The notes under the pieces were generated by a model. The model was not told the origin of the DNA, searched no databases, and saw only the letters and a program-made list of their open reading frames with translations. The position numbers were made by a program, and so were the translations under genes. A stretch of DNA of 64,000 bases from Candidatus Binatia bacterium (GTDB lineage Bacteria; Desulfobacterota; Binatia; Bin18), in the NCBI GenBank assembly GCA_951812575.1, contig OX638322.1:710850-774849 (forward strand). Reading direction: 5' to 3'. The first letter of the stretch is position 1. Each line of letters begins with the position of its first letter. Shown here piece by piece: positions 29,957 through 61,896 of this stretch.

Positions 29957-30114
29957 GACAACCCTCCTTCCATGCGTGTCCGTTCGTTTATCCCCTTGCC
30001 TCTCCCGCTCATCACAGGCGAGAGGCGTTTTTTCTCCTTGTGGCTGCTTTGAGGGAGAAATGCAAGAGAAAAGGGAAAACAGAGGCGGGCAATACGGCCG
30101 TGGGGCTGTCCGTC

Positions 30115-31593
30115 CTAACGGTCTACAGAAACCACGTCTGGTTCACGCCGGGCAGTATCGTTCTGGCGGCGACCGAGCTCGGCCAGGACCTCAAGATGTC
30201 GGGCCCGCGTCATTTGATACCGGGATAAAAAGACCAGCGCACACAGAAAGAGCACCATTAACCCCGGGCCAACGGCAAGACCCAGAGTGAAAACCTGAGA
30301 GGCCGCAACCGTTCCGGGTGCGGCCATGGTCGGAAACTGGATGAGGTCGAGGGCCACGCCTGCCAGAAACCCGCCGATGCCGGACGCGGCCTTCGCACAA
30401 AAAGTGATCGTCGAGAAAAAGACCCCCTCTTGGCGTTTTCCGGTCACAATTTCATTTTCGTCCACGCTATCGGCAATCATGGAAGGAATCAGGATATCGA
30501 TGGCAACCACTGCGGTCACCAGGAGGATGACATGGCCGGCGATAAGGGACAGCAGACTCGGATGCCCGTTTTCAGGCAGCAGGTCGAGCAGGCGCAAAAA
30601 AATCAGGAGAGGCCCAAAAAAGATGGCAAAGGCGGCTAAACCGAGCACGACCTGTCTTTTATCAAATCGTTCCGTCAGCGGACGAGTCAGACAAAAGGCA
30701 ATAAGGGCGGAGAGAAACAGGCCGAAGGTCAGGAGACCGATTTCCTTGGTTGAGAATCCCCAGAAATAGGTGTTCATATACAGCCACATCACGTCATTAA
30801 ACCCCCGCCCCCCAGCGGCAAACAAGGAGCCAATGACCAGCATCCGATAGGAGCGATTAGAGAATGCCGCCCGCAGCTCGCCGGCAAAGCGCCCGAGCGT
30901 CAACTTCCGTTTTGCCGACGGACTCCGCAGACTCGGAATCAGCCCATGCGTCCCAAGCGCGCAGGCCAGAATGGTCGTGAGCATCATCCCGGCACAGACC
31001 AGCGCAAATCCCTCATACGCTCCGGGATTCAGGCGGCCATCGGCAAACGTCTCGGAGGGCGCAAAGAAATAAAAATATCCCATAACAGACGCGGTCAGGC
31101 CGCCGGACCAGCCAAACAACAGGCGATAGCTCACCAGAGAAGTCCGCTCATCATAGTCGGGCGAGAGCTCTGGGAGCATGGCTCCGCTCGGCACCGCGTA
31201 GAACGTCATGGCGACGCGCACCCCAAACGCAAAGGTGCATAACCACACGAAGAGTCCGATCTGGCCCAGCTCAGGCGGTGTAAACAAGAGAAAGAAACAC
31301 ACCGCCATGGGCAGCGCGGACAAATACATAAACGGATGGCGGCGTCCCCAGCGCGAATGAAAATTGTCGGAAATCGAGCCCACCAAGGGATCGGTAATCG
31401 CGTCGATGCACAGCGCAATAAAGATCGCGATGCCGCTTAAGGTTCCCGAGAGGCCAAGGACTTGGTTGTAATAGAAGAGCAGAAAAACATTGAAGACCGT
31501 ATTTTTCGTGCCTTCGGAAACTGATCCAACACCGTAAAAGAGTTTGGTGGCAAACCGGACCTGAGCGGATTGTGGCGCGGCTGAAGCAGGCAT
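30115..31593 (-). CDS. MFS transporter, glycoside-pentoside-hexuronide (GPH) symporter-like
   Basis: 492 aa with about 12 hydrophobic segments. N-terminal LFYGVGSVSEGTKNTVFNVFLLFYYNQVLGL and DNFHSRWGRRHPF are typical of the GPH/MelB family. Confidence 0.75.
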   Translation of the reverse strand: MPASAAPQSAQVRFATKLFYGVGSVSEGTKNTVFNVFLLFYYNQVLGLSGTLSGIAIFIALCIDAITDPLVGSISDNFHSRWGRRHPFMYLSALPMAVCFFLLFTPPELGQIGLFVWLCTFAFGVRVAMTFYAVPSGAMLPELSPDYDERTSLVSYRLLFGWSGGLTASVMGYFYFFAPSETFADGRLNPGAYEGFALVCAGMMLTTILACALGTHGLIPSLRSPSAKRKLTLGRFAGELRAAFSNRSYRMLVIGSLFAAGGRGFNDVMWLYMNTYFWGFSTKEIGLLTFGLFLSALIAFCLTRPLTERFDKRQVVLGLAAFAIFFGPLLIFLRLLDLLPENGHPSLLSLIAGHVILLVTAVVAIDILIPSMIADSVDENEIVTGKRQEGVFFSTITFCAKAASGIGGFLAGVALDLIQFPTMAAPGTVAASQVFTLGLAVGPGLMVLFLCALVFLSRYQMTRARHLEVLAELGRRQNDTARREPDVVSVDR

Positions 31594-31743
31594 AAAGGCA
31601 AGAGTGTAGCGGGAGAGGGAACGAGGCGGAATGGGGGCAGGCAGGACCTCAGAAACGACTCATCTGGGAACTACTCGAACCGTAAGCCGTGCAAATTTGG
31701 CTGCGACTAGATTTTCTGGAAATCCTGAGCTGTATCTTTCAGG

Positions 31744-31824
31744 TCAATGCCGCAGAGCCTGACCGACAATATAGACCAGAGCCCCAACAAAGAAAGTGAC
31801 GGTGAGGACAACAAGAATTTCCAT
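31744..31824 (-). CDS. Putative 26-aa hydrophobic micro-protein
   Basis: Manual: ATG 31824 starts 1 nt after the upstream TGA. MEILVVLTVTFFVGALVYIVGQALRH* is a single TM-like helix. Too short for the track. Speculative. Confidence 0.25.
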   Translation of the reverse strand: MEILVVLTVTFFVGALVYIVGQALRH

Positions 31825-31825
31825 C

Positions 31826-32053
31826 TCACAGCTCCCTGAGTCGTCTTATGTCGCTGAGGATCTTCCGATTGATTAAGATGAGAACGATTATCAAAATGGT
31901 GATGAGAAGAAAATCGGCATAAACAAGCAGCTTTTCTGCTGAATTATAATTTTGTACAAGCCAACTAATTAACCCAACTGTTATTGCCAGGATCAACGCG
32001 AATATGGCTTTTAGATAACCGATAAATTCCTTAATTTCATCGACTCCTGACAT
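31826..32053 (-). CDS. Small two-TM membrane protein in an AT-rich islet
   Basis: 75 aa: …IFALILAITVGLISWLV…LLVYADFLLITILIIVLILI… The DNA is far more AT-rich than the flanks. Confidence 0.5.
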   Translation of the reverse strand: MSGVDEIKEFIGYLKAIFALILAITVGLISWLVQNYNSAEKLLVYADFLLITILIIVLILINRKILSDIRRLREL

Positions 32054-33920: not shown

Positions 33921-33953
33921 AAAAAAGAAGGGCGCCGATAACAGCGCCCTTCT
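33921..33953 (-). terminator. Rho-independent terminator after D-aminoacylase copy 1
   Basis: Minus strand: AGAAGGGCGC-tgttatcg-GCGCCCTTCT, followed by TTTTTT. Confidence 0.75.
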
Positions 33954-34005
33954 CTCTTTGTCAGCTCTCATCCCAGGACCATGGTCCCAGGCTGATCTTC
34001 TGCTC

Positions 34006-35697
34006 TTAGCCTCCGTGCCGGAGCAACTTGCCGGGAATATTACCCGTATTCTCGTCATTCTCCAGCGTCATCTCGCCGTTCACCAGAACCGCCCGGTAGC
34101 CTTTGGCCTTTTGCACTCGCCGCCATTCTTTGCCCGGCAGATCATGCACCACCTCTGTGGGCAGGATTTCCAGGTTGTCGTAGTCGTAGACCACGATATC
34201 GGCGGGCGCACCTTCGCGCAGGACGCCACGATCCTTAAAGCCCGCACAGGCTGCCGGCTGGGCACTCAGCCGCCAATGCGCCTCTTCCAGGCTCATCATA
34301 TTCATCTCACGGACCATCCGGGTGATGGATTCCGTGGAATAGCGACCGCCGCAGAAGAACTTGGTGTGGGCGCCACCGTCCGAGACCCCCAGCAGCGTGG
34401 AGTCGTTGACGAGTTCTTTGAGAAACTCATTCTTCTCACCAACCGCAGGCGAATAGAAGGTCGTGGCCATATCGTCGGCAACCGCCAGGTCAAGCATGGC
34501 ATCCACGGGATGCTTGCCTTCCTTCTCACCCGCTTCACGCAGGGTCAGATTCTCCAGGTGCTTCATGTCTGCACGCTTCACCTCAAGAATGATGACGTCG
34601 TCAAACGAGGCCGTGACCGCACCAGTCGGATCGTTCTTTAAGCTGGCGCGCCGGGTCGGGTCCGCCAACTTCGACTTCCGCTCTTCTACGGTGCCCATCG
34701 TCGCTTCCCGCCAGGCCGGATCATCGTCCCACAAATTCCAGTCATGAAAGGTGAAGGTAAAGCCAGCGCTGGTCGAGACCAACTGACCGTAGATGCGCAG
34801 GCCCTTTTGGCGACAGCGTTCGATCCAGGCTAACAGATTCCGGTGCCGGCTCGGGTCGGAATCCAGGGCTTGGATGGCGTTGTACAGAATCGGCCGCCCA
34901 CTGGCCAAAGCCAGCTCTTCGTAATTCTTCTCGATCTCCTTGAAGCCGGATACACTCGGGATAAGGGACATCTGGATGAAGCCCTCATTCCGTTCGGATA
35001 AGACTTTCGCGAATTCGACACAGGTTTCCTGGTGCATGATATCGGTCGGCATGGGCGTGCCGTCATAGTCACACTGTACGCTGTCTTCCCCAAAGCGTTG
35101 GGCTGACCAGCCACAGCCACCCGCCGCCATGCCTTCATGTAAGAGCTGCACCATCTTCTTGTGTTCATCATCCGTCGGCATCCGGCCCGATTTGGCCTCT
35201 TCGCGGCCCATCACCCACACCATTAACGGCGCAATGGGCACATACGGCAGGATGTTCAAGCCTTTGGGCGTGCGCTCGACACTGTCCAGGAATTCCGGGA
35301 AGGTGACCCAGTCCCAGGGCATCCCGGCCTTCATTGAGTCGTACGGAATCGCTTCGGTCCGGGTCATGGTGAGCATCGCCCGTTCCTGATCTTCAGGCGC
35401 CACTGGGGCAAAGCCGAAGCCACAGTTGCCGATCACCACGGAAGTAATGCCGTGCCAGCCGGAAATCGTCAGATACGGGTCCCAAAACAACTGTGCATCA
35501 TAGTGGGTATGTAAATCAATAAATCCCGGCACCACCATATGCCCTTCGGCATCGAGCGTCTTGGTGCCTTGGTGGGCCTGAATACGGCCAATCTTCGCAA
35601 TTTTGCCGTCTTTGACACCAATATCGCCTCGGTAACGCGGCAGTCGCGTCCCATCGATAATCATTCCATCTTTGACAACCAGATCATATTCTGGCAT
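34006..35697 (-). CDS. D-aminoacylase / N-acyl-D-amino-acid deacylase-family amidohydrolase (copy 1)
   Basis: From ATG 35697: MPEYDLVVKDGMIIDGTRLPRYRGDIGVKDGKIAKIG…VVPGFIDLHTHYD (metal-binding HxH). The C-terminal beta-barrel segment is present. Confidence 0.8.
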   Translation of the reverse strand: MPEYDLVVKDGMIIDGTRLPRYRGDIGVKDGKIAKIGRIQAHQGTKTLDAEGHMVVPGFIDLHTHYDAQLFWDPYLTISGWHGITSVVIGNCGFGFAPVAPEDQERAMLTMTRTEAIPYDSMKAGMPWDWVTFPEFLDSVERTPKGLNILPYVPIAPLMVWVMGREEAKSGRMPTDDEHKKMVQLLHEGMAAGGCGWSAQRFGEDSVQCDYDGTPMPTDIMHQETCVEFAKVLSERNEGFIQMSLIPSVSGFKEIEKNYEELALASGRPILYNAIQALDSDPSRHRNLLAWIERCRQKGLRIYGQLVSTSAGFTFTFHDWNLWDDDPAWREATMGTVEERKSKLADPTRRASLKNDPTGAVTASFDDVIILEVKRADMKHLENLTLREAGEKEGKHPVDAMLDLAVADDMATTFYSPAVGEKNEFLKELVNDSTLLGVSDGGAHTKFFCGGRYSTESITRMVREMNMMSLEEAHWRLSAQPAACAGFKDRGVLREGAPADIVVYDYDNLEILPTEVVHDLPGKEWRRVQKAKGYRAVLVNGEMTLENDENTGNIPGKLLRHGG

Positions 35698-35938
35698 AGC
35701 GCCCCTCCTTAAAGGCTTAAGATTTTTGCTCGCGGTCCGGTAGAGTGAACCGCGGTTCACTCGGTGTATATGGCGAAAAACAGTTTAGCGCAAGAGTCTT
35801 GCGCAGGGAATATTGGAAGGAGAGAGCAGATTAACACTCCCCTTTAAAGTCTCCACAGAGAAGGGCGCCGGTAACAGCGCCCTTCTCTCTTCGTCAGCTC
35901 TTAGCCTAGAGCCGTGACCCCAGGCTGGTCTTCTGCTC

Positions 35939-37633
35939 TTAGCCTCCGTGCCGGAGCAACTTGCCGGGAATGTTACCCGTGTTCTCGTCATTCTCCAGCG
36001 TCATCTCACCGTTCACCAGAACCGCGCGGTAGCCTTTGGCCTTTTGCACCCGCCGCCATTCCTTGCCCGGCAGATCGTGGGCCACTTCCATCGGCAAGGT
36101 TTCCAGGTTGTCGTAGTCGTAGACCACGATATCGGCCGGGGCGCCTTCCCGCAGCACGCCGCGGTCCTTGAAGCCCGCGCAGGCCGCCGGCATCGCACTC
36201 AACCGCCAGTGGACCTCTTCCAGGCTCATCATGTTCAAGTCACGGACTATGCGCGTAATCGCTTCCGTGGAATAGCGTCCGCCGCAGAAGAACTTGGTGT
36301 GGGCGCCACCGTCCGAGACCCCCAGCAGCGAGGACTCCGGAGTGACGAGTTCCTGGAGGTATTCATCGTTCGAGCCCACGGACGGGGTGAAGAAGGTCGT
36401 CTCCATGTTATCGGCCAGGGCCAAATCGAGCATGGCATCCACGGGATGCTTGCCTTCCTTCTCGCCCGCTTCACGCAGGGTCAGATTCTCCAGGTGCTTC
36501 ATGTCTGCGCGCTTTACATCAAGAATAATGACATCGTCAAACGAACTGGTGACCGCACCGGTGGGGTCATTCTTTAAGGCCGGCCGACGGGTCGGGTCCG
36601 CCAGCTTCGACTTCCGTTCTTCCACCGTCCCCAGCGTCGCTTCCCGCCAGGCCGGATCATCGTCCCACAAATTCCAGTCGGTAAAGGTAAAGGTAAAACC
36701 GGCGTCGGTTGAGATCGTCTGGCCGTAGATGCGCAGGCCCTTTTGGCGGCAGCGTTCGATCCAGGCTAACAGATTCCGGTGACGGCTCGGGTCGGCGTCC
36801 TGGACCTGGATGACGTTATACAGAATCGGCCGCCCACTCACCTGGGCCAGTTCTTCGTAGTGGCTCTCAATGACTTCCATCGGCGCCACACTGGGGATGA
36901 GCGACATCTGGATGAAGCCCTCGTTGCGATCGCCTAACACCTTGGCAAGTTCCAGGCAGGTTTCGTTGTGCATGATGTCGGTCGGCATGGGCGTGCCGTC
37001 GTAATCACACTGTACGCTGTCTTCCCCAAAGCGTTGGGCCGACCAGCCACAACCACCCGCGTCCATGCCTTCGTGCAGTAATCGCACCATCTCCCGGTGT
37101 TCATCGTCCGTCGGCATCCGGCCCGACTTCGCCTCCTCACGGCCCATCACCCACACCATTAACGGCGCAATCGGCATATACGGCAGGATGTTGAGACCTT
37201 TGGGCGTGCGCTCGACACTGTCCAGAAACTCCGGAAACGTCACCCAGTCCCAGGGCATCCCGGCCTTCATTGAATCGTACGGAATCGCTTCGGTCCGGGT
37301 CATGGTGAGCATCGCCCGCTCCTGATCCTCGGGCGGGACTGGGGCAAAGCCAAATCCGCAGTTCCCGATCACCACGGAGGTGATGCCATGCCAGCCGGAA
37401 ATCGTCAGATACGGGTCCCAAAACAACTGCGCGTCGTAATGGGTGTGCAGATCGATAAAGCCCGGCACCACCATATGCCCTTCGGCGTCCAGAGTTTTCG
37501 TCCCCTGGTGCGATTGCAGGCGGCCGATCTTGGCAATCTTGCCGTCTTTGACGCCAATGTCCCCCCTATAACGCGGCAGTCGCGTCCCATCGATGACCAT
37601 TCCATCTTTGATCACGAGATCATATTCCGGCAT
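35939..37633 (-). CDS. D-aminoacylase-family amidohydrolase (copy 2)
   Basis: 564 aa, collinear with copy 1 with scattered substitutions (roughly 85-90% identity by eye). Same HxH motif. Confidence 0.8.
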   Translation of the reverse strand: MPEYDLVIKDGMVIDGTRLPRYRGDIGVKDGKIAKIGRLQSHQGTKTLDAEGHMVVPGFIDLHTHYDAQLFWDPYLTISGWHGITSVVIGNCGFGFAPVPPEDQERAMLTMTRTEAIPYDSMKAGMPWDWVTFPEFLDSVERTPKGLNILPYMPIAPLMVWVMGREEAKSGRMPTDDEHREMVRLLHEGMDAGGCGWSAQRFGEDSVQCDYDGTPMPTDIMHNETCLELAKVLGDRNEGFIQMSLIPSVAPMEVIESHYEELAQVSGRPILYNVIQVQDADPSRHRNLLAWIERCRQKGLRIYGQTISTDAGFTFTFTDWNLWDDDPAWREATLGTVEERKSKLADPTRRPALKNDPTGAVTSSFDDVIILDVKRADMKHLENLTLREAGEKEGKHPVDAMLDLALADNMETTFFTPSVGSNDEYLQELVTPESSLLGVSDGGAHTKFFCGGRYSTEAITRIVRDLNMMSLEEVHWRLSAMPAACAGFKDRGVLREGAPADIVVYDYDNLETLPMEVAHDLPGKEWRRVQKAKGYRAVLVNGEMTLENDENTGNIPGKLLRHGG

Positions 37634-37842
37634 AGCGCCCCTCCTTGGGAATTAGAATTTTTGCTCGCGATCCTCTGAATTTGATCGGAGCCTATCGGAC
37701 CCATACTGCTAAAACTGGCAAGTTACAAGACTTTTGGGGATTTTTCGAGCGGTTTCTCCGGTTTTCCCACTAATTTCTTCCACATCTGCCCCGTTTTTGC
37801 TCTTGACTACGGACAAACGAAACAGCGCGGCAGGCTCATAGC

Positions 37843-42651: not shown

Positions 42652-42966
42652 ATGCTCGATAGACAGACATTGGACGACATTATCCGGCGGGTTGTGGAGA
42701 CGGCCCAGCCTGAGAAGATCATTCTCTTCGGGTCTGCGGCGCGGGACGACATGGGTCCCAACAGTGACGTGGACCTGCTCATCATCAAGGAGGGGGCGGA
42801 TGCGCCCAATCTCATGGCCCGGATATACCGGAAGCTGTACGGAGTCGGTGCGGCGGTTGATGCCATCGTCGTCTCCTCCGAGGATGTAGAGCGATTCAAG
42901 GATAGCCACGCGCTAATCATCAAGCCCACCCTGCGGGAAGGCAGAGTGGTATATGAAGCCGCCTGA
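42652..42966 (+). CDS. Minimal nucleotidyltransferase (MNT) antitoxin of a HEPN/MNT module
   Basis: ILFGSAARDDMGPNSDVDLLII (GSxxRxxxxxxSDxD) motif, 104 aa. Confidence 0.8.
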   Translation: MLDRQTLDDIIRRVVETAQPEKIILFGSAARDDMGPNSDVDLLIIKEGADAPNLMARIYRKLYGVGAAVDAIVVSSEDVERFKDSHALIIKPTLREGRVVYEAA

Positions 42967-43105: not shown

Positions 43106-43133
43106 GGAGCCTCCTGAACGGCTAGAGCCGTTT

Positions 43134-43706
43134 TCATGCTGCTGTAGCGAGGCGATAACCGGCGTGGCGGAAATAATTGGCACACTCCGTAGGGGAGACG
43201 GCAGCCAGGGCCGGGCTCACCGCCGCCCACAAGCTCGCCACCGTCCGCGGGGCGACCGCGCGCAGGCGGGCTTTGAGTTTCGCAAAGACCTGCTCGATGG
43301 GATTGAAGTCCGGGCTGTACGGGGGCAGATAGAGCAGTTGTGCGCCGACGGCTTCAACCGCTTGGCGGACCCCGGCCACTTTATGACAGGCCAGATTGTC
43401 TAGGACGACGCAGTCGCCCGGCTGGAGGGTGGGGGCGAGGACTTGTTCAACATACGCCACAAAGGCGGGGCCATCGACCGGACCGTCGAGGACAGCGGGG
43501 GCGGTGAGCTGGTGGGCGCGGAGCGCGGCAATGAGCGTCGTCGTTTGCCAATGGCCGTGGGGGACTTTCGCCACGAGGCGCGTCCCGCGCCGACTCCGGC
43601 CATAGCGACGGGTCATCTTTGTCTGCAGAGCGGTCTCGTCTAGGAAGACGAGCCGCTGTCCGTCCCACTGCGGGGCCTGCCTCCGCCAGTGCTGCCGGGC
43701 CACCAT
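43134..43706 (-). CDS. IS630 transposase, DDE catalytic part (downstream frame)
   Basis: VFLDETALQTKMTRRYGRS, VVLDNLACHK, LLYLPPYSPDFNPIEQVFAKLK. The frame is +1 relative to the upstream HTH ORF. Confidence 0.8.
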   Translation of the reverse strand: MVARQHWRRQAPQWDGQRLVFLDETALQTKMTRRYGRSRRGTRLVAKVPHGHWQTTTLIAALRAHQLTAPAVLDGPVDGPAFVAYVEQVLAPTLQPGDCVVLDNLACHKVAGVRQAVEAVGAQLLYLPPYSPDFNPIEQVFAKLKARLRAVAPRTVASLWAAVSPALAAVSPTECANYFRHAGYRLATAA

Positions 43707-43710
43707 GACA

Positions 43711-44073
43711 TCAGGCCGATCTTGTTCGGCGGCGTGCAGGACTTTTTTTTACGGTCAGGCCAAGACGCCGGACGGCCCGCCAGACCGTGGTGAGCCCAAC
43801 GGACACGCCCAAGGCCGTGCGCAATTCGGCCAGCGTCGCGTCGGGCTGCGCCGCGATGAGGGCTTCGAGTTGCTGGCGATACGGCGCTAGGAGCGGAGCC
43901 TGATACTGGGTCCGGTGCCTAGGGGCCACCTGGCCGCTCGCCCGGTAGCGCTGCATCAGCCGCCGTACCCAAGCCGGACTCACCCGATACTTGTGGGCCA
44001 CCTCGGCGGTCGGGAGGCCCGCCTCCCGATCCGCCACTACCCGCTCCCGCAGGTCCAATGAATACGCTTGCAT
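43711..44073 (-). CDS. IS630 transposase, N-terminal HTH part (upstream frame)
   Basis: From ATG 44073: MQAYSLDLRERVVADREAGLPTAEVAHKYRVSPAWVRRLMQRY… The ORF ends just after an A8 tract (T8 on plus, 43743-43750). Confidence 0.75.
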   Translation of the reverse strand: MQAYSLDLRERVVADREAGLPTAEVAHKYRVSPAWVRRLMQRYRASGQVAPRHRTQYQAPLLAPYRQQLEALIAAQPDATLAELRTALGVSVGLTTVWRAVRRLGLTVKKSPARRRTRSA

Positions 44074-44343
44074 ATGGCCTCCTGGCGACTGCCACCCTAA
44101 CACTCTTGCTTCCCGACCGCTACACTACGGTGGAAACTGCTCTAGAATTTATCGTGAATTACTCTAGCGGAGAGAATGGACAAGCTCCCTACCACCCGCT
44201 GGAAGTAAAGTGGAGGAGCGGGTAAAAGCGCTGATTGCCGAAGAGATGTCGCTTCAAGACCCACGTAAGGCGCAGAGATAGGCGCGGGTTAGCCAAGGAA
44301 CTCGGCACCACCACAAGGAAGCTCCTTGATTCTTCACTGTGTG

Positions 44344-45915
44344 ATGGTCAGAATACAGGTGCATACACAAAACAGGCGGCAAACGACAGGGCTCGGCCTT
44401 TCGGCGGACGATGCGTTCATTGGCTTGGTTGACTATGGTCTATTCGGTGACAAGCTTCCGCCCTGCCTTACCTCCGAAGGACTTTCAGACCATGTATCCG
44501 AAGAGCTCTTGCCGCTAACAACAGAAAGCAATGAAAGGAAGTTGAAGAAAATTCTTAAAGGAAGAAACCATGACTTCATTCGCTACGAAGCGCTACGCGA
44601 TGTCAATATTCCTCGTCAGATGGGGGTTCCCCATCCTGACAGCTATATTGTCCAGTGCCTAGCTCTGAAGCGACATTGGGAGAAAATAAAAAAGCACTGC
44701 GCGAAACCGAAAATACCCGTGAGCCTCATCTTTGCTCGAAAAATCTCCGACAAGCGTATTTTCCAGATGAATTACAAGGGAATCGAACGTTTTGAGAACG
44801 AAGAGGCGGATATCCGCACAATGACGGGTGCTCACTATATCGTCCGTACCGATATTTCGAAATGCTTTCCGAGCATCTATACCCACTCAATCCCTTGGGC
44901 GCTGCATGGGCGTAGCAAGGCAAAAAAGAACCACTGCCTCTCGTTGCCGGGAAATCTTTTGGATAAAGCCACTCAGAATACCCGAGATGGACAGACAAAC
45001 GGGCTCCTGATCGGACCGCACACATCTAATGTTATTTCCGAGATAATACTGACCCAAATTGACCATGAGATACTCAAGAAGGGATACGATAGATTTAGCC
45101 GCAATATTGACGACTACACCTTTTACGCGAGAACCCGCGCCGAAGCTGATAACTTCATTCGTGACCTTGTGATGCAGTTGCGTGAGTACGAGCTTGCACT
45201 AAACGAACGCAAGACTGACATTCGGCCTATGCCTGTGCCAGTGGAAGAGGATTGGGTTCGAGAGTTGAACAGCTTCCGATTCCCGAACAGAGAAAAAATC
45301 AGCTTTGCTCCGGTCCAATCGTTCCTGGACTTGGCATTGAAGCTGGCGCACGGAGCAGAGACTTCTGCTGTTTTGAACTACGCTATCAAGATGGTGCCAA
45401 AGAATCTCAATAGTCGAGCCAAGCGTCTCTTTGTTCAGCATGTTGTCAACTTGGCGGTGCGATATCCGTATCTTGCTCCTCTCCTGGACGAGCATGTGTT
45501 CGCCAAACATAGCCATGATGGAATTGAGAAAGTTAAGCGTGAGTTCATTGACGAACTCCTCGCGATTGGGATTCAAAAGGTCTACCCGGATGCCATCGCC
45601 CACGCACTGTATTACGCGCTCAAATATGACCTCCAGTTCAACACGACGGAGGACAAACTCCAAGAGATAGTCACAATCGATGACTGCGTTTCGATGGTGC
45701 TGCTTCGAGAGTACGCAAAACGACACAAAATCAAAAGTATTCGTGGTGCAATCCGAGAACGGGCAAACAAGCTGAAAGGTATGGACTCCCAAGAACAGGA
45801 GCGCTTTTGGCTTTTGATCTATCAAGTGTGGAGAGAAAAAACGCTCAGAGATGAAGGCCAGACATTTCTGGCTGACCTGAAACGAGAGCGTTTCAACTTC
45901 GTCCACTTCCCATGA
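44344..45915 (+). CDS. Abi/UG-class (defence-associated) reverse transcriptase with helical C-terminal domain
   Basis: RT motifs in order: NIPRQMGVPHPDSY, VRTDISKCFPSIYTHSIPWAL, GLLIGPHTSNVISEI, SRNIDDYTFYA, LALNERKT. About 230 aa of helical tail follow. ATG 44344 (TTG 44326 also possible). Lower GC than flanks. Confidence 0.8.
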   Translation: MVRIQVHTQNRRQTTGLGLSADDAFIGLVDYGLFGDKLPPCLTSEGLSDHVSEELLPLTTESNERKLKKILKGRNHDFIRYEALRDVNIPRQMGVPHPDSYIVQCLALKRHWEKIKKHCAKPKIPVSLIFARKISDKRIFQMNYKGIERFENEEADIRTMTGAHYIVRTDISKCFPSIYTHSIPWALHGRSKAKKNHCLSLPGNLLDKATQNTRDGQTNGLLIGPHTSNVISEIILTQIDHEILKKGYDRFSRNIDDYTFYARTRAEADNFIRDLVMQLREYELALNERKTDIRPMPVPVEEDWVRELNSFRFPNREKISFAPVQSFLDLALKLAHGAETSAVLNYAIKMVPKNLNSRAKRLFVQHVVNLAVRYPYLAPLLDEHVFAKHSHDGIEKVKREFIDELLAIGIQKVYPDAIAHALYYALKYDLQFNTTEDKLQEIVTIDDCVSMVLLREYAKRHKIKSIRGAIRERANKLKGMDSQEQERFWLLIYQVWREKTLRDEGQTFLADLKRERFNFVHFP

Positions 45916-45927
45916 ACCGGTCGAAAG

Positions 45928-48771
45928 ATGTCTGAAAAAATCACCCTGACCCAACTCGAATCCTTCCTGTTCAAAGCCGCTGACATCCTGCGCGGGAAGA
46001 TGGACGCCTCCGAGTTCAAGGAATTCATCTTCGGCCTGCTGTTCCTGAAACGCCTGTCCGACGAGTTCGACCGTAAACGCGTACAACTCCGTGAGCGTGA
46101 CTTTGCTCACCTCAAGGACCAGCCTGCCCTGCTGGCGGAACTGGTTGAGGACAAGACCTCCTACGGCGAGACGTTCTTCGTTCCCGGTCGTGCGCGCTGG
46201 CATGAGACCTGGAAGGATGAGAACGGCGACACGGTTCCGGCGCTCAAGGACCTCAAGGCCGATATCGGCAACATGCTGAACAAGGCCATTGCTGCGGTTG
46301 AAGACGAGAACGACTCTCTGGCCGGGGTGCTGAAGAACAATATCGATTTCAACGCGGTCAAGGGCAAGACCAAGATACCGGACCAGAAATGGAAGGACTT
46401 GCTCGATCATTTTAACCAGCCGGGTTTCGTCTTGGTCAACGACAATTTCGAGTTTCCCGACCTGCTCGGCGCGGCCTATGAATACCTGATTAAGTATTTT
46501 GCGGACAGCGCCGGCAAGAAAGGCGGTGAGTTCTATACCCCGGCGGAGGTCGTGCGCCTGCTGGTACAACTGACCAAGCCCACAGAAGGGAATGAGATAT
46601 ACGACCCGGCCGCGGGTTCCGGTGGCTTTCTCATCCAGGCCCATCAGTACGTTGAGGAGCAGGGCGAGAACGCCAACAATCTGGCTCTCTACGGGCAGGA
46701 TTCCAACGGCACCACGTGGTCAATCTGCAATATGAATATGATCCTCCACAACATCACGAGTTTCACCATTGAGAACGGTGACACCTTGGAGGACCCGCAG
46801 ATTTTGGAAAACGGCCAGATACGCAAATTCGACCGGGTGCTGGCCAACCCGCCGTTCTCGCAGAACTACAGCCGCGCCAGTATGCAATTCACCCACCGCT
46901 TCCGCGAGTGGTGCCCGGAAACCGGCAAAAAGGCCGACCTGATGTTCGTCCAGCACATGCTGGCCAGCCTCAAGAGCAACGGTCACATGGCCACCATCAT
47001 GCCCCACGGCGTGCTTTTTCGCGGAGGCAAGGAAAAGCTGATTCGGGAACTGTTGATAAACGACGACGTGATTGAGGCTATCATCAGTTTGCCCCAAGGT
47101 CTTTTCTACGGGACCGGCATCCCCGCCTGCGTGCTGGTCTGCAACAAGAACAAACCCGACAATTTGCGCGCCAAGGTGTTGTTCATCAATGCCGACCGGG
47201 AGTATGCGGAGGGGAAGAATCAAAACAAGCTACGCCCGGAGGACATCGAGAAAATTGACTTCGTGTTCACCCACAAACGCGAGATTCCCAAATACAGCCG
47301 ACTGGTGAACATGTCGGAGATTGTGGAAAAGCACGACTACAACCTGAACATCCGGCGCTATGTGGACAACACGCCCGAGCCGGAACCGGAAGACGTACAA
47401 GCCCATCTCATCGGCGGCATCCCCGAAACAGAGGTGACGGCGCAAAGTGACACCTTCGCCAAATTCGGCCTTCAATGCGAAACCCTCTTTCAGCCCGACC
47501 GACCGGGCTACCTGTCTTTCCAGGAGGCGATTGCCAGCAAGGCCGATATCAAAGGCTGCATTGAAGCAGACCAGTCGGTCGGGCGTACCTTGGAGACCCA
47601 TCGCGCTGCCCTGGAAGAGTGGTGGAGCGTGGCTCGTGATGATTTTGCTGCGCTTGAACGGGCCAACCACGGCGGGCGAAAAATGCCGGAAGTCCGGCAT
47701 GAGTTGTTGACCACTCTCAAAGACAAGCTCGTTCCCCTGGGCGTGCTGGACGAGTTCAAGAGCGCCGGCGTGTTTGTCAACTGGTGGCAGCAGAACCGCT
47801 ACGACCTGAAAACCATTGTCTCAACCGGCTGGCATCACACCCTCATCCCGGACGACTATCTGATTGCCGCGTTTTTCCAGGGCGAGGCAAACGCCATTGA
47901 GGAATTGGAAGCCCGTATCGGTGAACTGCAAACCGAGTTGGCCGAGGCCGTGGAAACCGCGCAAGAGGTGGCTGCCCACGAACCCGACGGAGAGGAAAAG
48001 GTCACGGCCACCGTCATCAAGAAGGCCCTCAAAGCCCTCATTGACGACCTGAAGGACAGCGCGGGCGCATCCGCTCAGCGGGAGCGTGACGACCTCAAGG
48101 CCCAGGAGGGCGCTATCAAGGATATCGAGGATCAAATCAAGGTCAGCAAAGCTGCGTTGAGAGAGAAGGTCGGTGAACTGGAACTCAAAGTCCAACTCAA
48201 ACGGCTTGGCGGCGCAGGATTCACAGCCGAAAATAAGGAACTCATCCAGCAGGTCGAATCCCAGCTTGCGAATCTGGACCCACACGACAAGACCGACAAA
48301 AAGAAGATCAACGCCCTGAACAAGGACAGGGCCGCCCTTCAAGCGCGGATTGCCAAGACTGACGCAATACTGGCAGCAATCAACGGCCAACTCACCGATG
48401 ACGAAGCCAAGCGCCTCATCCTCAAAAAGCTCTACGACATCGCCAGTGCTGAACTTGAACGCTACCTTAATGCGGAAATGCGCGACTTGATTTCGGGTGT
48501 TGAGAACCTGTGGGAAACGATCCAGCCATTTGCAGAGTTCCCCCCAGGCAAGCACCTTGGCGAACTCAAGGGCAAGATGGCTATTCACGGAGATATTGTC
48601 CACATGGACTCGACTGGCGATTGGGACATAAAGCCGACGCTCGGCGAGCGATTGAAGGACCTCGAACGTAGCGGTTCCCTGGTTCGTTCGGCCCTCCCGA
48701 GGAAGCCGTTCGGGCCGGTTGGACGACGGCTCGGCGCACTATCGAGGTTTCTCGCAGAGCGCGGCGAATGA
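45928..48771 (+). CDS. hsdM: Type I restriction-modification methyltransferase subunit HsdM with ~430-aa C-terminal extension
   Basis: N-terminal [32 protein letters not shown], motif [11 protein letters not shown], motif IV ANPPFS, then [12 protein letters not shown] at about aa 480. A long helical/coiled-coil region follows to aa 947. Confidence 0.85.
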
Positions 48772-48888
48772 GCATTGCGTACGTTGATACCTCGGTGTTG
48801 ACCGACACGAAGCAAAAGCCCGGCGACACATTCCGTTACTCACCTTGTACGTTTGACGTATTACACCAAACATTCTATCGTCACCCCG

Positions 48889-49176
48889 GTGATTCAATCG
48901 TTCGGAGACAGTAAGAGTCGCCGGCTGTTCGAGGGCGGACGGCTGAGAGGCTTTCGCGGCCTTGATTACGAGCGGGCGCTGATGTTGCTTGATGCGCTTG
49001 ACGCCGCGTCTTCGCTCGCTCCGCTTCGGGCGCTTCAAGCCGTTCGGCTCCACGCACTGACCGGTGACCGACGGAGACGATGGGCAATGACGGTGAACCG
49101 GCGCTGGCGGGTGACATTTCGATTCGCGGACGGCAATGCGCACGAGGTTACTATTGAGGACTATCACAAAGGATGA
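48889..49176 (+). CDS. higB: HigB-like (RelE/ParE superfamily) toxin
   Basis: From GTG 48889: VIQSFGDSKSRRLFEG…LHALTGDRRRRWAMTVNRRWRVTFRFADGNAHEVTIEDYHKG, the plasmid-maintenance-killer pattern. Confidence 0.75.
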   Translation: MIQSFGDSKSRRLFEGGRLRGFRGLDYERALMLLDALDAASSLAPLRALQAVRLHALTGDRRRRWAMTVNRRWRVTFRFADGNAHEVTIEDYHKG

Positions 49177-49192
49177 AATCGGGAGGTAGGCT

Positions 49193-49480
49193 ATGACGCG
49201 AGTGAAGACTCATCCCGGTCGGGTACTGCGGGCGGAACTGGAAGCGAGAGGCATGAGCGCAAACCGGCTTGCGCTCGCCATCCGGGTACCCGCAAACCGG
49301 ATTACCGCCATCCTGCGGGGCGAACGGGCGGTCACGGCCGAGACTGCCGTCCGCCTCGGGCGCTACCTGGGAACCGGCCCGGCATTCTGGATGAACCTGC
49401 AAAGCGGATACGACATCTCGGTCGTGGAGAGCGTCAAGGGGCGCATGATCGAAGGCGAGGTGCCGACCGCGGTTTCGTGA
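49193..49480 (+). CDS. higA: HigA-family HTH (XRE) antitoxin
   Basis: HPGRVLRAELEARGMSANRLALAIRVPANRITAILRGERAVTAETAVRLGRYLGTGPAFWMNLQSGYDI. Confidence 0.85.
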   Translation: MTRVKTHPGRVLRAELEARGMSANRLALAIRVPANRITAILRGERAVTAETAVRLGRYLGTGPAFWMNLQSGYDISVVESVKGRMIEGEVPTAVS

Positions 49481-49526
49481 CGCTGGTACTACGGGAACGA
49501 TGACTATGCGGGCACGACCGCTTCGC

Positions 49527-52500
49527 ATGGACGAACGCAATCACGTCGAGAAACCCCTGCTTGAGCAGTTGTACGGCCTGGGCTGGGAGATTATCGACCT
49601 GACCGACGAGAAGCAGCAGCCCGGCTATACGTTTCGGGAGAGTTTTACCGAAGTCGTCATGCTACCGGTGTTGCGAGAGCGGCTTAAAGCTATCAATCCG
49701 TGGCTGGACGACGATCAGGTCGAAGAAGTCGTCAAGCAACTCACCGCGAGCTTCCCCGGCAGAGGGCTAATCGAGAACAACAAGCACGCGCTACGTCTGC
49801 TTCTGGAGAACACCAGCGTCAGCGAGAACCGACAGACAGGCGAGAACAGTCCGACGGTGCGCTTTATTGACTTCAAGCACCGCGACAACAACCGCTTCAT
49901 TGCCGTGTGTCAATTCAAGGTCCGCATCCTGGGCACCGAGCACCACATCATCCCGGACATTGTGTTGTTCGTGAATGGCCTGCCCGTGGTCCTGATTGAA
50001 TGCAAGTCGCCCAAGGTGAAGGACGCTATCCCCGAAGCCATAGACCAGATGCTGCGCTACAGCGAACAGCGTAGCGTTACAGGCGAAGGCAGCGCACCGC
50101 TCTTTTATTTCAACCAGTTTGTGGTGGCCACCTGTCGCCAGCAGGCAAAATTCGGGACGATCACCACGCATAGTGAAAAGCATTTCTATCGCTGGGCCGA
50201 TCCCTACCCGCGCACGCTCAACAACCTTGAACATGGCGCGGGCAGCCCGAACGACCAGCAGCGCTTGGTTGCCGGGATGCTGGATAAAGCCAATCTGCTT
50301 GACCTCATCCACACCTTCACCCTGTTTTCGACCAACGACAAAGGTCAGACCATCAAGATTGTGGGGCGCTATCAGCAGTTTCGAGCGGTCAAGCTGGCCG
50401 TCAAGCGATTGCTGGAGGGCCGGAACCCGCGCGAGCGGAGCGGCATCATCTGGCATACTCAAGGCTCGGGCAAATCGTTGACCATGATGTTCATGGTGCG
50501 TGAAATGTACCGCCATGCGCAGTTGGCGCACTGGAAAGTAGTCTTCGTTACCGACCGGACACAGCTCGAAGACCAGTTGAGCGAAACCAGCCAGAGCGTC
50601 GGCTTCACGGTGAAGACGGCCAACCGCATTAGCGAACTGAAGGAACTGCTCAGGGCCGATACCTCGGACCTGGTCATGGCCATGATTCATAAGTTCCGGG
50701 AAGCGGACCTGACCGAGACCTTCCCGCAGCTTAATGTCAGCCCACACATCCTGGTCATGACCGATGAAGCCCACCGCTCCCAATACAAACTGCTCGGGGC
50801 AAATCTCGACAGGGGCATCCCGAACGCGGCGAAGATCGGTTATACCGGCACGCCGATTGACAAGACCGAGGTCGTCTTCGGTGACTACATCGACAAATAC
50901 ACCATGCGGCAGTCCATTGACGATGGCGTGACCCTGGAGATCGTCTACGAGGGCCGCACTCATAACGCAGAAATACCCGACCAGGAAGGCATGGATGCGG
51001 CCTTTGCGGATGTGTTCAGCGATTACAACCTTCAACAAAGACTGGAAATCCTTGGCTACGGCTCCCGAGACGCCTACCTGGAGGCAGAACCGACGATTGC
51101 GGCCAAGGCCAGGGATATGGTCAAGCACTACCTGACCCATGTATTCCCGAACGGCTACAAGGCCCAGGTGGTAGCCACATCGCGGGAAGCTGCGGTCCGC
51201 TACAAGAAGCACCTCAACAGGGCCTTGGGTCTAGCCGTTGCCGAGTTGAAAACATCAAACCCGAACAGTCTTGACCTGGAACAGCTCAAGCAACTGCAAA
51301 CCGATGTCGTCATATCCGACGGCCACAACGACCTGCCGCACCTCAAGGCGCATGCCGACCAGACCAGGCACGAACGCAGCATCAAGAGCTTCAAGATGGC
51401 GTTCGGGAATGAAGACGAAGGCGTGAGCGGAGACATGGGCATTCTCGTTGTCAACAATATGCTTATCACAGGTTTCGATGCGCCCGTGGAGCAGGTCATG
51501 TATCTGGATAGGGTCATCACCGACCATAACCTGTTGCAGGCTATTGCTCGGGTGAATCGCGTCGGTGGCGATACCAAGGATAAAGGCTTTGTGGTCGATT
51601 ATGTCGGCGTTGGGCATCATCTCAAGAAGGCTATCGACGCGTATGACGAGCGAGAACAAAAGGAAGTTATTGATACCCTCAGCTTTCCCGGAGAGGAGTT
51701 GCGCAACCTCAAGGACAGCCATGCCGCGATTATGGCCCTGCTTGAACAGCATGGCCTGACGGACCTGACCGACCACGACGCCTTCTTTGACGTGTTCTAT
51801 GACGAGGACCTGCGCTTTGACTACATGCAAGCGTTCAGGAAGTTTACCAAGTGCCTGAACCTCGTCTTCCCTGCGCGGCAGGCGTTGACGTTTATGAACG
51901 ATTACAACGCCCTGGCTGAAATCAACATTCTCGCCGGCAAGCACTTCCGGGACGAACGACTCAGCATGAAGGGCATCCCACCGAAGCTGCGTGCAATCAC
52001 GGACACATACCTGAAGTCAAAAAGCATAGCCCAGAAGGTCAAGCCGATTTCCATTCTTGACGAGGATTTTCAGAAGGAAGTCGGGAAGCGTCGCCGTACA
52101 AAAACAAGAGCCGCGGAAGTAGAACACGCCATCCGTCACCACCTTGAGATTGAGTTGACTGACGACCCAGACTTGCAAGCGTCCTTCGCGGAAGCGCTCG
52201 CGCGGATATTTCAAGAGTTTCGGGACAACTGGAAAAGGATTTACGAAGAGCTGGAGAAATTACGAACAAGGATCATCAATGACAGCAAGGAGCCGACCTA
52301 TGGCCTTCATAGGAAGAGGCAGATACCGTTCTTTCGTATGTTTCGACGCGAGTTGTTTGGCGTGGATATGGTAAAGGACGTCGACGAATTGCGGGTGGCG
52401 GAAACGAGTCCACGTTACGGATTGAGTGAGGACGACACAATCGGCCACTTGGTTGCGTTGACACAGGAGGTATCACTGGTGGTCGAGCGAGAGTTGAAGC

Positions 52501-52679
52501 TGACGGGATTTTGGGAAAATATTCCAGCGCGCAACAAGCTCAGGGCCGAGATTCAGAAAACACTTCTCCAGCCGTCGTTCGGAGCGCTGCCGAACTTGGT
52601 GACGAAGCGTGACCGGATAATCAGCCGGGTGATGGAGATCGCGGAAAAGAATAATGACATTATTCTCCACGCGGAATAA
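49527..52679 (+). CDS. hsdR: Type I restriction enzyme R subunit HsdR
   Basis: N-terminal nuclease region (IPDIVLFVNGLPVVLIECK), Walker A HTQGSGKSLTMM, DEAH box VMTDEAHRSQ, and motif VI QAIARVNR. Start at ATG 49527 (49500 also possible). Confidence 0.9.
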   Translation: MDERNHVEKPLLEQLYGLGWEIIDLTDEKQQPGYTFRESFTEVVMLPVLRERLKAINPWLDDDQVEEVVKQLTASFPGRGLIENNKHALRLLLENTSVSENRQTGENSPTVRFIDFKHRDNNRFIAVCQFKVRILGTEHHIIPDIVLFVNGLPVVLIECKSPKVKDAIPEAIDQMLRYSEQRSVTGEGSAPLFYFNQFVVATCRQQAKFGTITTHSEKHFYRWADPYPRTLNNLEHGAGSPNDQQRLVAGMLDKANLLDLIHTFTLFSTNDKGQTIKIVGRYQQFRAVKLAVKRLLEGRNPRERSGIIWHTQGSGKSLTMMFMVREMYRHAQLAHWKVVFVTDRTQLEDQLSETSQSVGFTVKTANRISELKELLRADTSDLVMAMIHKFREADLTETFPQLNVSPHILVMTDEAHRSQYKLLGANLDRGIPNAAKIGYTGTPIDKTEVVFGDYIDKYTMRQSIDDGVTLEIVYEGRTHNAEIPDQEGMDAAFADVFSDYNLQQRLEILGYGSRDAYLEAEPTIAAKARDMVKHYLTHVFPNGYKAQVVATSREAAVRYKKHLNRALGLAVAELKTSNPNSLDLEQLKQLQTDVVISDGHNDLPHLKAHADQTRHERSIKSFKMAFGNEDEGVSGDMGILVVNNMLITGFDAPVEQVMYLDRVITDHNLLQAIARVNRVGGDTKDKGFVVDYVGVGHHLKKAIDAYDEREQKEVIDTLSFPGEELRNLKDSHAAIMALLEQHGLTDLTDHDAFFDVFYDEDLRFDYMQAFRKFTKCLNLVFPARQALTFMNDYNALAEINILAGKHFRDERLSMKGIPPKLRAITDTYLKSKSIAQKVKPISILDEDFQKEVGKRRRTKTRAAEVEHAIRHHLEIELTDDPDLQASFAEALARIFQEFRDNWKRIYEELEKLRTRIINDSKEPTYGLHRKRQIPFFRMFRRELFGVDMVKDVDELRVAETSPRYGLSEDDTIGHLVALTQEVSLVVERELKLTGFWENIPARNKLRAEIQKTLLQPSFGALPNLVTKRDRIISRVMEIAEKNNDIILHAE

Positions 52680-52681
52680 GT

Positions 52682-53365
52682 ATGGACCCGGCCTACACCA
52701 TCAAACGCTCGTCAAAACGGAAAAAGTTGACGATAACCGTTGAGCGGGACCGGAGCGTCGTCGTTCGTGCCCCCGAGTCCACGCCTGAAGAAGCGATCCG
52801 GGAAGTGGTCGAGTCAAAACGTCGTTGGATTTATGAGAAGACGACGCATGGCCAGAAGTATCAGGAGCGCCCCCATCCGCCTGGCAAGGAGTTGGTGAAC
52901 GGTGAATCCGCGCTCTACCTTGGCCGTGAGTATCAAATTGAGATTATCCCGACCGACTCGACGGAGATACGTTTTGAGCGGCGTTTCCTGATCCCGGCTT
53001 CCCTGGCGGGCGAACGGAGCAATGCCCTTCGCAACTGGTACGTCAACCGCGCGAAAGAGAGGATTCTTCCAAAGGTCAAATCTATTGCGGCTATGCTCGG
53101 GGTGGAGTTTGCCAACGCGAAGATCGTGGACAATCGCTACCGCTGGGGCTCATGCACTGTCAAGAACAACGTGAATCTGAACTGGCGGCTGATTAAAGCG
53201 CCCATGTTTGTAATTGATTACGTCATCGTGCACGAACTCGCCCATCTGCTCGAAGCAAATCATACTCCCCGATTCTGTAATATCGTTCGGACACACGCGC
53301 CAAGGATGGAAAAGGCGCGGAGCTGGCTGAGGGAGAACGGCCAAATCCTTGAACAGGATATCTGA
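52682..53365 (+). CDS. DUF45/YgjP-like (M48-type) metal-dependent hydrolase
   Basis: HELAHLLEANHTPRF zinc motif. The ATG lies 2 nt after the hsdR stop, a common type I R-M companion. Confidence 0.8.
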   Translation: MDPAYTIKRSSKRKKLTITVERDRSVVVRAPESTPEEAIREVVESKRRWIYEKTTHGQKYQERPHPPGKELVNGESALYLGREYQIEIIPTDSTEIRFERRFLIPASLAGERSNALRNWYVNRAKERILPKVKSIAAMLGVEFANAKIVDNRYRWGSCTVKNNVNLNWRLIKAPMFVIDYVIVHELAHLLEANHTPRFCNIVRTHAPRMEKARSWLRENGQILEQDI

Positions 53366-53386
53366 GGATGGGGATTACAGTCACCC

Positions 53387-61524: not shown

Positions 61525-61818
61525 ATGGATGTATTGATTACCGTCACATGGCGCGCAGGAGCGAGTCAGGCAGAGAATAGAGCCGCGGCCCAGGTCGTCC
61601 AGGAACGGCTCATGAATCCCTTTCCCGGTGTGACCATCATCAACACAGTGGCCGACCTCGGCAAACGCAAACTGTACGTCATCGCGGATGTCACCGAGCA
61701 TGCCGTCAACGATATCCGAACGACCCTGGAGCTAACGACCCAACCGGCAATCGAGAGCGTGGAGATTGCCCTTGTCGTGGACGGGAAGAAGGCCATCAAT
61801 ACCTATCTGGCGATGTAA
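61525..61818 (+). CDS. Small hypothetical protein, 97 aa (DUF3303-like by recollection)
   Basis: ATG 61525 after GGGAGG: MDVLITVTWRAGASQAENRAAAQVVQERLMNPFPGVTIINTVADLGKRKLYVIADV…. Confidence 0.45.
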   Translation: MDVLITVTWRAGASQAENRAAAQVVQERLMNPFPGVTIINTVADLGKRKLYVIADVTEHAVNDIRTTLELTTQPAIESVEIALVVDGKKAINTYLAM

Positions 61819-61844
61819 CCGCGGCTCTTGTCTTGATTGCTGGC

Positions 61845-61896
61845 CTACCATTCCTCCCCGAACGGCTGGATATCAAGCTCAAAGGTCCAGCCCGAG
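61845..61896. repeat. 52-bp direct repeat, orphan copy of the SDR gene 3' end
   Basis: ctaccattcctccccgaacggcTggatatcaagctcaaaggtccagcccgag is 51/52 identical to 63710-63761. On the minus strand it would encode …SGWTFELDIQPFGEEW*. Confidence 0.9.

Follow-up and report, generated by a model that had tools for sequence, protein, structure and literature searches.

A DRT4 (UG15)-family reverse transcriptase gene at the head of a type I restriction-modification cassette that lacks hsdS in a Candidatus Binatia genome

Why should a reverse transcriptase (RT) gene lie directly upstream of a type I restriction-modification (R-M) operon from which hsdS is missing? The question is raised by a locus of Candidatus Binatia bacterium (assembly GCA_951812575.1, contig OX638322.1, positions 710,850 to 774,849 of the forward strand), and we refer to the whole stretch of 64,000 nucleotides that was analysed as the window. 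Its RT gene (44344..45915, plus strand, 523 residues) is followed on the same strand by hsdM and hsdR, and an initial annotation of the locus had proposed either that the RT opens a composite RT and R-M unit as its first cistron or that an independent gene had landed beside the R-M promoter. The explanation that we favor, with a probability of about 0.8, is that the gene encodes an active-type DRT4 that heads a mobile cassette, the R-M half of which has decayed in this genome.

The family membership of the RT was observed directly. The initial annotation had described it as a class-1 UG/Abi defense RT with a C-terminal helical repeat and had left the subtype to profile searches. PADLOC agrees on the class and gives the subtype as DRT4 (UG15): the Drt4 profile (PDLC02178) matched residues 19-521 with 524.7 bits (E = 7e-158) over profile positions 12-501 of 506, while the highest scoring model other than Drt4 was Drt6, at 322.8 bits, followed by RT_UG30, AbiK (147 bits), and AbiP2 (112 bits). 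Among the 25 PADLOC matches listed of 63, all were DRT, UG, or Abi models except one generic "RT" model (42.6 bits), and none was named for a retron. The best PDB matches were UG15/DRT4 chains (21ou_A and 9vdo_A, also 9ltm; E 3e-53), with Abi-P2, AbiK, and Drt3b as more distant matches. RVT_1 was the sole Pfam match, which upholds the statement that the protein has no maturase or endonuclease domain, and an Rfam scan of 41-55 kb returned no group II intron, retron, or other RNA family. The four palm motifs previously pointed out (NIPRQMGVPHP, TDISKCFPSIYTHSIPWAL, LLIGPHTSNVISEI, and RNIDDYTF) are all present in that order in the translation of 44326-45915, as is the tail of approximately 230 residues that follows them. 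The protein thus has an N-terminal fingers/palm RT region and a C-terminal alpha-repeat domain, and the latter is complete, as it runs to the common C-terminus of the homologues and the match extends to profile position 501 of 506. Deletion of 38 residues from the C-terminus abolishes defense by UG15 (PMC9226505). When 8000 candidate sequences were scored, 1310 database homologues of the RT were found at E <= 1e-10.

The residues that have been assigned functions in DRT4 (PMC12783706) are likewise retained. In the HMMER alignment the priming tyrosine of Escherichia coli DRT4, Y125 (MNYED), which is absolutely conserved in DRT4 (PMC12783706), corresponds to Y144 of the window RT (MNYKG). The catalytic aspartates and metal ligands D149 and D240/D241 correspond to D170 and D256/D257, the residues that position the deoxynucleoside triphosphate (dNTP), R75, N271, and K274, to R91, N287, and K290, and the product-stacking residue Y337 to Y346. 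In our alignment A1 of 26 homologues, which span 55-84% identity, Y144, D170, D256, R91, K290, and Y346 are invariant, and D257 and N287 are conserved in at least 90%. As judged from its sequence, the RT is probably a full-length, active DRT4 (UG15) defense enzyme. One of the homologues, P0015, has a direct internal duplication of about 46 residues over the priming-tyrosine motif (A1 columns 140-185; …KPVSRIFVRKGADKRVFQMNYKG… repeated).

How such an enzyme might act is suggested by E. coli DRT4, a single-gene system that assembles as a dimer of trimers, primes synthesis on its own tyrosine, and makes random single-stranded DNA (ssDNA) of ~60-80 nucleotides without a template (PMC12783706). Exonuclease I keeps this DNA harmless, DRT4 being toxic in an sbcB mutant, and the ssDNA-binding protein of phage T5 triggers killing of the infected cell by shielding the 3′ end (PMC12783706). 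No other defense gene is needed, as DRT4 alone suffices for defense in E. coli (PMC12783706, PMC9226505). By homology with that enzyme we infer that the window RT would form a hexamer, use its own Y144 as primer, and continuously produce short random ssDNA with neither a template nor a non-coding RNA. In the uninfected cell a host exonuclease would clear the DNA as it is made; after infection a phage single-strand-binding protein would cover the 3′ ends, the DNA would build up, and the cell would die ahead of phage release, i.e., abortive infection. The RT appears to have no RNA partner, because the Rfam scan was empty and because homology to a related metagenome contig (L084, below) begins only 5 nucleotides before the ATG, the 200 nucleotides 5′ of the RT not being shared; this is absence of evidence only.

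The start of the RT gene is either the ATG at 44344, which aligns with the N-termini of homologues (MVRRQTTGLGL), or the TTG at 44326 used by gene callers, which has a Shine-Dalgarno-like stretch (AAGGAAG) 4 nucleotides 5′ of it and gives a product of 529 residues (P0001). The stop codon, TGA, is at 45913-45915. The 529-residue protein was found, identical, on four contigs from four metagenome samples, and its ratio of nonsynonymous to synonymous substitution rates (dN/dS) relative to the copy in L084 is 0.28, a value that at the sequence level indicates purifying selection, weaker than that on the hsd genes (0.11-0.14). The GC content of the RT had been described as lower than that of both flanks, and in 1-kb bins it is 0.513 (44-45 kb) and 0.486 (45-46 kb), vs. 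0.57-0.67 to the left and 0.56-0.60 to the right; that of hsdM is 0.57. A search of viral contigs returned only distant relatives of the RT (34% identity or less), and among these sequences we see no evidence that its clade is phage-borne. An antisense open reading frame (ORF) of 481 residues that spans the junction of the RT and hsdM (45199-46644, minus strand) was rejected as a shadow ORF, having no family match and being in three pieces in a related genome (L058, below), and the other antisense or shadow ORFs over the RT were considered spurious, as none of them has a family match or is conserved in L058.

Comparison with two other genomes indicates what the RT is joined to. The RT stop and the hsdM ATG at 45928 are separated by a spacer of exactly the 12 nucleotides reported before (ACCGGTCGAAAG; 45916..45927, plus strand), and a junction of the same kind is present in L084, a metagenome contig (12 nucleotides), and L058, a Candidatus Binatia chromosome (11 nucleotides). 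L084 is collinear with window positions 44339-48513 at 88% DNA identity, and L058 with 45331-48513 and 49517-53373 at 85-86%, so that the homologous block extends from 5 nucleotides before the RT ATG to 8 nucleotides past the stop of ygjP (53373). In L058 the genes hsdM (899 residues), hsdS (419 residues, Methylase_S), hsdR, and ygjP are intact; in L084 hsdM (894 residues) is followed at the contig end by the start of another gene, presumably hsdS. In both the block adjoins tRNA-Asn, downstream of recR, whereas in the window it is placed between a glyoxalase/MNT gene pair and hpaB. Since these chromosomal sites differ, the block has moved as one unit, and on sequence grounds we consider the RT to be the leading gene of a mobile cassette, RT-hsdM-hsdS-hsdR-ygjP, that is common to related Binatia-type genomes. 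The RT is probably co-transcribed with hsdM; a terminator scan detected no terminator-like site between them, although the promoter and terminator sites of that scan were no more numerous than expected from shuffled sequence and, for operon structure, inform only to the extent that no terminator was found.

The clades nearest that of the window have a further gene beside the RT. It encodes a HATPase_c_4 protein, with an N-terminal SLFN AlbA_2 domain in full-length copies, and lies directly 5′ of the RT (L084 8766-10001; L086 6189-7001; L087 1667-2479; L089 5769-7001; L039 8711-9949; L006 9423-9995; L003 9653-9994). Its end coincides with or overlaps the start of the RT in L084, L086, L087, L089, and L006. 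The window has no copy of the gene, which may serve this DRT4 clade as a second recurrent partner or as a regulator.

The initial annotation had described the operon as one that lacks hsdS. That hsdS is absent was confirmed, as tblastn with 16 HsdS proteins and a hidden Markov model built from them identified no HsdS-like frame in the 64 kb, including a hidden one in the gap between hsdM and hsdR. As a description of operon design the statement does not hold, since L058 has hsdS at this position and the gene was lost secondarily in the window genome. The breakpoints of this loss can be read directly. Homology to L058 and L084 ends at 48513 and homology to L058 resumes at 49517, and the 1003-bp segment between (48514..49516, plus strand) stands where L058 has 1388 bp. 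The replacement took away the 33 3′-terminal codons of hsdM, hsdS in its entirety, and the initial codons of hsdR. The conserved part of hsdM, a long-form type I methyltransferase gene, comprises codons 1-862 (45928..48513, plus strand; 85-88% DNA identity to L058 and L084). Its product matches Pfam N6_Mtase (354 bits) and HsdM_N as well as the PADLOC model MTase_I (PDLC03031, 915 bits, residues 3-864) and has the S-adenosylmethionine motif DPAAGSGGF and the catalytic motif NPPF (ANPPF). The hsdM ORF is still uninterrupted, at 947 residues, but its C-terminal 33 residues, which are conserved between L058 and L084, have been exchanged for 85 foreign ones (stop at 48771).

The remainder of the replacement segment carries a toxin-antitoxin pair on the plus strand, higB (48853-49176; Pfam HigB-like_toxin) and higA (49193-49480; an HTH antitoxin, Pfam HTH_3). 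About 340 nucleotides of the segment are without a family match, and a sigma-70-like site at its higB end (48853-48881) could now drive hsdR. We considered whether 48514-48914 is the debris of a VapB/PIN-type toxin-antitoxin system and rejected this, as Pfam was empty even at E <= 1 and so was tblastn against the fetched loci, which took in the Phd/PIN pair that adjoins the RT in L085. Downstream, hsdR (49500..52679, plus strand) encodes an intact type I restriction subunit of 1059 residues with HSDR_N, SWI2_SNF2, ResIII, and T1R_D3-like regions, in which DEAH and a PD..ExK-like IECK motif were seen. It begins with 7 residues (MTMRARP) in place of the 11 (MTKCRNSPYPP) in L058, to which the gene is 86% identical in DNA with a dN/dS of 0.11. 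The last gene of the module (52682..53365, plus strand) encodes a YgjP-like zinc metallopeptidase (Pfam YgjP-like, 190 bits). The C-terminus of HsdM contacts HsdS. Methylation and restriction both depend on HsdS (PMC11411939). With hsdS lost and the HsdM C-terminus replaced, it is most likely that the R-M half of the window cassette is inert, barring complementation in trans by a compatible hsdS elsewhere in the genome. hsdS was probably lost recently, as hsdM and hsdR are still uninterrupted and have dN/dS values of 0.11-0.14 relative to their relatives. The other metagenome contigs with the identical RT end inside hsdM. L058 has decayed at its other end: at L058 9911-10588 the larger part of the AlbA_2 gene and two thirds of the RT, from its 5′ end, have been deleted. 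On sequence comparison, the window and L058 represent two different and opposite decay products of one cassette.

The initial annotation had suggested that homologues be surveyed for recurrent adjacency to hsdM, and such adjacency was found repeatedly. We took the best 79 species-level genome loci of RT relatives (32-79% identity), called their ORFs, clustered the products, and annotated the recurrent clusters. By far the commonest neighbors of the RT were HsdM (17 loci), HsdS (16), and two HsdR families (9 each). Type I R-M genes lay within 10 kb of the RT at 19 of the 79 loci (14 of the 50 with at least 3 kb on both sides), and at all 19 the RT was co-oriented and contiguous with them. The full order hsdM-(x)-hsdS-RT-(x)-hsdR was seen in 13 of these, with the RT usually beginning -17 to +10 nucleotides from the hsdS stop. 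At five or six further loci, all from Verrucomicrobiota, the RT sits with 4-nucleotide overlaps between an Eco57I-type methylase and a GHKL ATPase, in an operon of PLD-SNF2 helicase, methylase, and ATPase that matches the published Hma system (L041 3139-13326; L053 3094-11542; L008, L007, L009, and L014). In three relatives at 73-74% identity (L086 2753-13685; L087; L089) the RT lies between an SNF2 helicase and a DUF1156 protein of 989 residues, in an interval that also holds several toxin-antitoxin pairs (FitA/PIN and MNT/HEPN), suggesting that the RT is embedded there in yet another modification-type system. On a neighbor-joining tree of the RTs the R-M-linked ones occur at no fewer than seven places; the association has therefore arisen or persisted repeatedly. 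The remaining loci have heterogeneous immediate neighbors.

These data allow the alternatives to be weighed. The retroelement reading, in which the gene is the RT of a retron, group II intron, or other retroelement, has the generic RVT_1 match in its favor and can practically be dismissed. The best PADLOC models are all class-1 UG/Abi with Drt4 first, the PDB neighbors are UG15, AbiK, Abi-P2, and Drt3b, and the empty Rfam scan leaves neither retron nor intron RNA beside a protein that has no maturase or endonuclease domain; a profile placement among group II intron or retron RTs, which the initial annotation had named as refuting its proposal, was not obtained from Pfam, PADLOC, or Rfam. It is far from likely, too, that an independent abortive-infection RT simply landed beside an R-M promoter in a juxtaposition of no evolutionary or regulatory meaning. 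That DRT4 works alone in E. coli (PMC12783706, PMC9226505), that about two thirds of the homologue loci have no R-M neighbor but a heterogeneous set of others, and that the GC content of the RT (0.49-0.51) differs from that of hsdM (0.57) are all consistent with such an event. Against it stand a junction of 11-12 nucleotides kept in three genomes at 85-88% identity with the block at different sites, the 19 of 19 R-M-linked loci that are co-oriented and contiguous, mostly with overlaps or gaps to hsdS of 10 nucleotides or less, and the lack of a detected terminator between the RT and hsdM. As far as genetic linkage is concerned, chance neighborhood is largely refuted. A closer relationship, in which the RT backs up the R-M system as a second layer or guards it, as PrrC does, restrained or informed by the Hsd complex or responding to anti-restriction or anti-nuclease proteins, we consider doubtful. 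The repeated finding, in distant phyla and RT clades, of the RT packed tightly and co-oriented into type I R-M and Hma operons would fit it, as would the precedent of PrrC and PARIS as R-M guardians (PMC12707154) and the nature of the DRT4 trigger, which shields ssDNA ends from host exonuclease (PMC12783706) and could conceivably blunt degradation of DNA after restriction. On the other hand, DRT4 defends without an R-M partner, most homologues are not linked to R-M genes, and the partner varies (two HsdR families, Hma, and DUF1156-type loci), which argues for generic co-location over a specific protein-protein interface; moreover, the window RT ORF is intact (dN/dS 0.28 vs. L084) despite the loss of hsdS. 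Dependence of the RT on the R-M enzyme is unsupported by the present data, which are of sequence.

It is also improbable, in our estimation, that the whole cassette including the RT is non-functional here and heading for loss. This would accord with the deleted hsdS and clipped hsdM, with an IS630 element 202 nucleotides 5′ of the RT, with the absence of the AlbA_2/HATPase_c_4 gene found immediately 5′ of the RT in its closest relatives, with the loss of two thirds of the RT at the sister locus in L058, and with an RT dN/dS above that of the neighboring genes. The RT ORF, though, is of full length and retains all the catalytic and priming residues checked, the identical 529-residue protein recurs in four metagenome samples, and hsdM (947 residues) and hsdR (1059 residues) are uninterrupted, so that the rearrangement is probably recent. 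Several observations nevertheless count against an active DRT4 at the head of a mobile cassette with a decayed R-M half. The RT resembles E. coli DRT4 only moderately (185 bits, residues 37-496); the E. coli contact residue Y238 is N254 here, giving the motif NIDD instead of YIDD, and the trimer-interface residue F140 is aligned with T161. Selection on the RT is more relaxed than on the hsd genes (0.28 vs. 0.11-0.14), its 5′ truncation in L058 indicates that it can be lost from the module, and the IS630 insertion may have altered its expression. The promoter scan detected no sigma-70-like promoter 5′ of the RT or at its junction with hsdM. Lastly, an hsdS could be present elsewhere in the genome of approximately 5 Mb, and the inactivity of the R-M half is something that we infer rather than observe.

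Past 42.4 kb on one side and 53.4 kb on the other, the cassette is flanked by metabolic genes. At the left edge of the island lies a solo gene for an MNT-type nucleotidyltransferase of 104 residues (42652..42966, plus strand; Pfam Polbeta, NTP_transf_2) with no HEPN partner downstream; similar 104-residue MNT genes, paired with HEPN, adjoin the RT homologues in L086, L087, and L089, and the solo gene may be a remnant of an older defense island at the site. The IS630-family element (43127..44141, minus strand; Pfam DDE_3, HTH_Tnp_IS630) is bounded by imperfect 28-nucleotide terminal inverted repeats, with a CTAG(A) duplication seen as CTAGA to either side. Metagenome contig L080, which is 99.6-99.8% identical, lacks the element, and this is therefore a recent, polymorphic insertion. 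Its transposase is encoded in two frames on the minus strand (HTH, 43711-44103; DDE_3, 43134-43706) split around a run of eight A (43740-43750), suggesting programmed frameshifting or a frameshift mutation. Farther away, two amidohydrolase genes in tandem (33926-35738 and 35859-37673) share ~85.6% DNA identity and appear from this to be a recent duplication. Near the window end an ATPase of 384 residues (AAA_21/AAA_15, OLD/AbiEii-like ABC type; 62500-63654, minus strand) could belong to another defense system, and the neighboring ORF (61766-62665) has no family. The AT skew is unusually high (0.25-0.26) over 30001-32000, the region of an MFS_2 transporter, vs. |0.1| or less in most other bins.

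What does this mean for the proposed composite unit? The enzyme itself is not new, as DRT4 structures have been solved and a trigger and mechanism proposed from experiments, and the window RT is an ordinary DRT4-family defense gene in a mildly interesting genetic setting. The idea that it is the first cistron of such a unit is sustained as regards genetic linkage, by the junction of 11-12 nucleotides in two other genomes at 85-88% identity, the block that moved, and the recurrent embedding. The accompanying remark that the arrangement is uncharacterized does not stand for the category: because the nesting of defense genes in type I R-M operons has already been published, this is not a new one. 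The census adds that, of the closest 79 species-level DRT4 loci, roughly one in four to one in three belong to defense operons based on DNA modification, and that this recurs in different phyla and RT clades. By contrast, the gene is treated as stand-alone in the DRT4 literature searched. Such loci provide a testable case of whether embedded abortive-infection genes only share transcription and mobility with R-M or complement it functionally. A speculative and rather unlikely possibility is that DRT4 embedded in R-M or Hma operons makes a two-layer unit, co-transcribed and firing once restriction is defeated by phage proteins that shield DNA ends or ssDNA from host nucleases; if that were so, RT-hsdM-hsdS-hsdR-ygjP would be a mobile, selectable combination and not mere co-location. 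The locus also documents how a cassette of this kind decays, with hsdS replaced by a toxin-antitoxin segment in the window and the RT truncated in a sister genome, and it cautions against taking an R-M operon without hsdS as a design feature.

Of the known systems, the closest is DRT4 of E. coli 12-c8-a (21ou, 9vdo, 9ltm; Wang et al. 2025, PMC12783706); Gao et al. 2020, as cited in PMC9226505, is a further reference for it. Both proteins have RT fingers and palm followed by an alpha-repeat in place of the thumb, both retain the priming tyrosine, the three catalytic aspartates, and the arginine, asparagine, lysine, and tyrosine that contact dNTP or product, neither has a detected non-coding RNA, and their lengths are similar (523 residues here vs. 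540). They differ in the moderate match overall, in NIDD for YIDD, in T161 at the F140 position, and in host, that of the window being a Binatia-type environmental bacterium. AbiK, Abi-P2, and DRT6 share with DRT4 protein-primed, template-independent DNA synthesis and a hexamer of RT plus alpha-repeat, and DRT6 has the same trigger (PMC12783706), but their profile scores with the window RT are far lower (Drt6 323, AbiK 147, and AbiP2 112 vs. Drt4 525). The genetic setting differs as well. The window RT is joined to a type I R-M operon, whereas the UG15 of Mestre et al. lies in P2/P4 variable (hotspot) regions (PMC9226505), and the two main papers describe DRT4/UG15 as a stand-alone gene in defense islands and P2/P4 hotspots (PMC12783706, PMC9226505). 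Our literature search found no paper that ties DRT4/UG15 specifically to type I R-M; a paper on AbiA (PMC11077055) that it returned mentions hsd only in strain genotypes.

With PrrC, the anticodon nuclease of the EcoprrI type IC locus, the window RT shares the arrangement of an abortive-infection effector encoded with a type I R-M operon (as reviewed in PMC12707154). There the R-M enzyme physically silences the nuclease until a phage anti-restriction peptide sets it free; in contrast, DRT4 is active and sufficient alone in E. coli and is not known to be restrained in this way. The broader precedent is "guilt by embedding," in which self-sufficient defense genes are nested in the operons of type I R-M, BREX, DISARM, and Hma systems (Payne et al. 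2024, bioRxiv 10.1101/2024.01.29.577857), co-oriented with them in about 97% of cases, and of which TgvAB in VPI-2 of V. cholerae (PMC11411939) and PrrC in EcoprrI (PMC12707154) are examples. DRT4 is not named among the embedded systems in the available text of Payne et al. or in those of its supplements that were searched. Its homologues between hsdS and hsdR, or between the Hma methylase and ATPase, are nonetheless like the genes described there, being on the same strand and tightly packed, and 13 type I R-M loci and five or six Hma loci have system genes on both sides of the RT on one strand. The window, L084, and L058 differ in having the RT 5′ of hsdM, as the first gene, so that in the window it is not embedded in this strict sense. 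The RT-first order of the window is thus a lineage-specific permutation of a widespread embedding of DRT4 in type I R-M and Hma operons.

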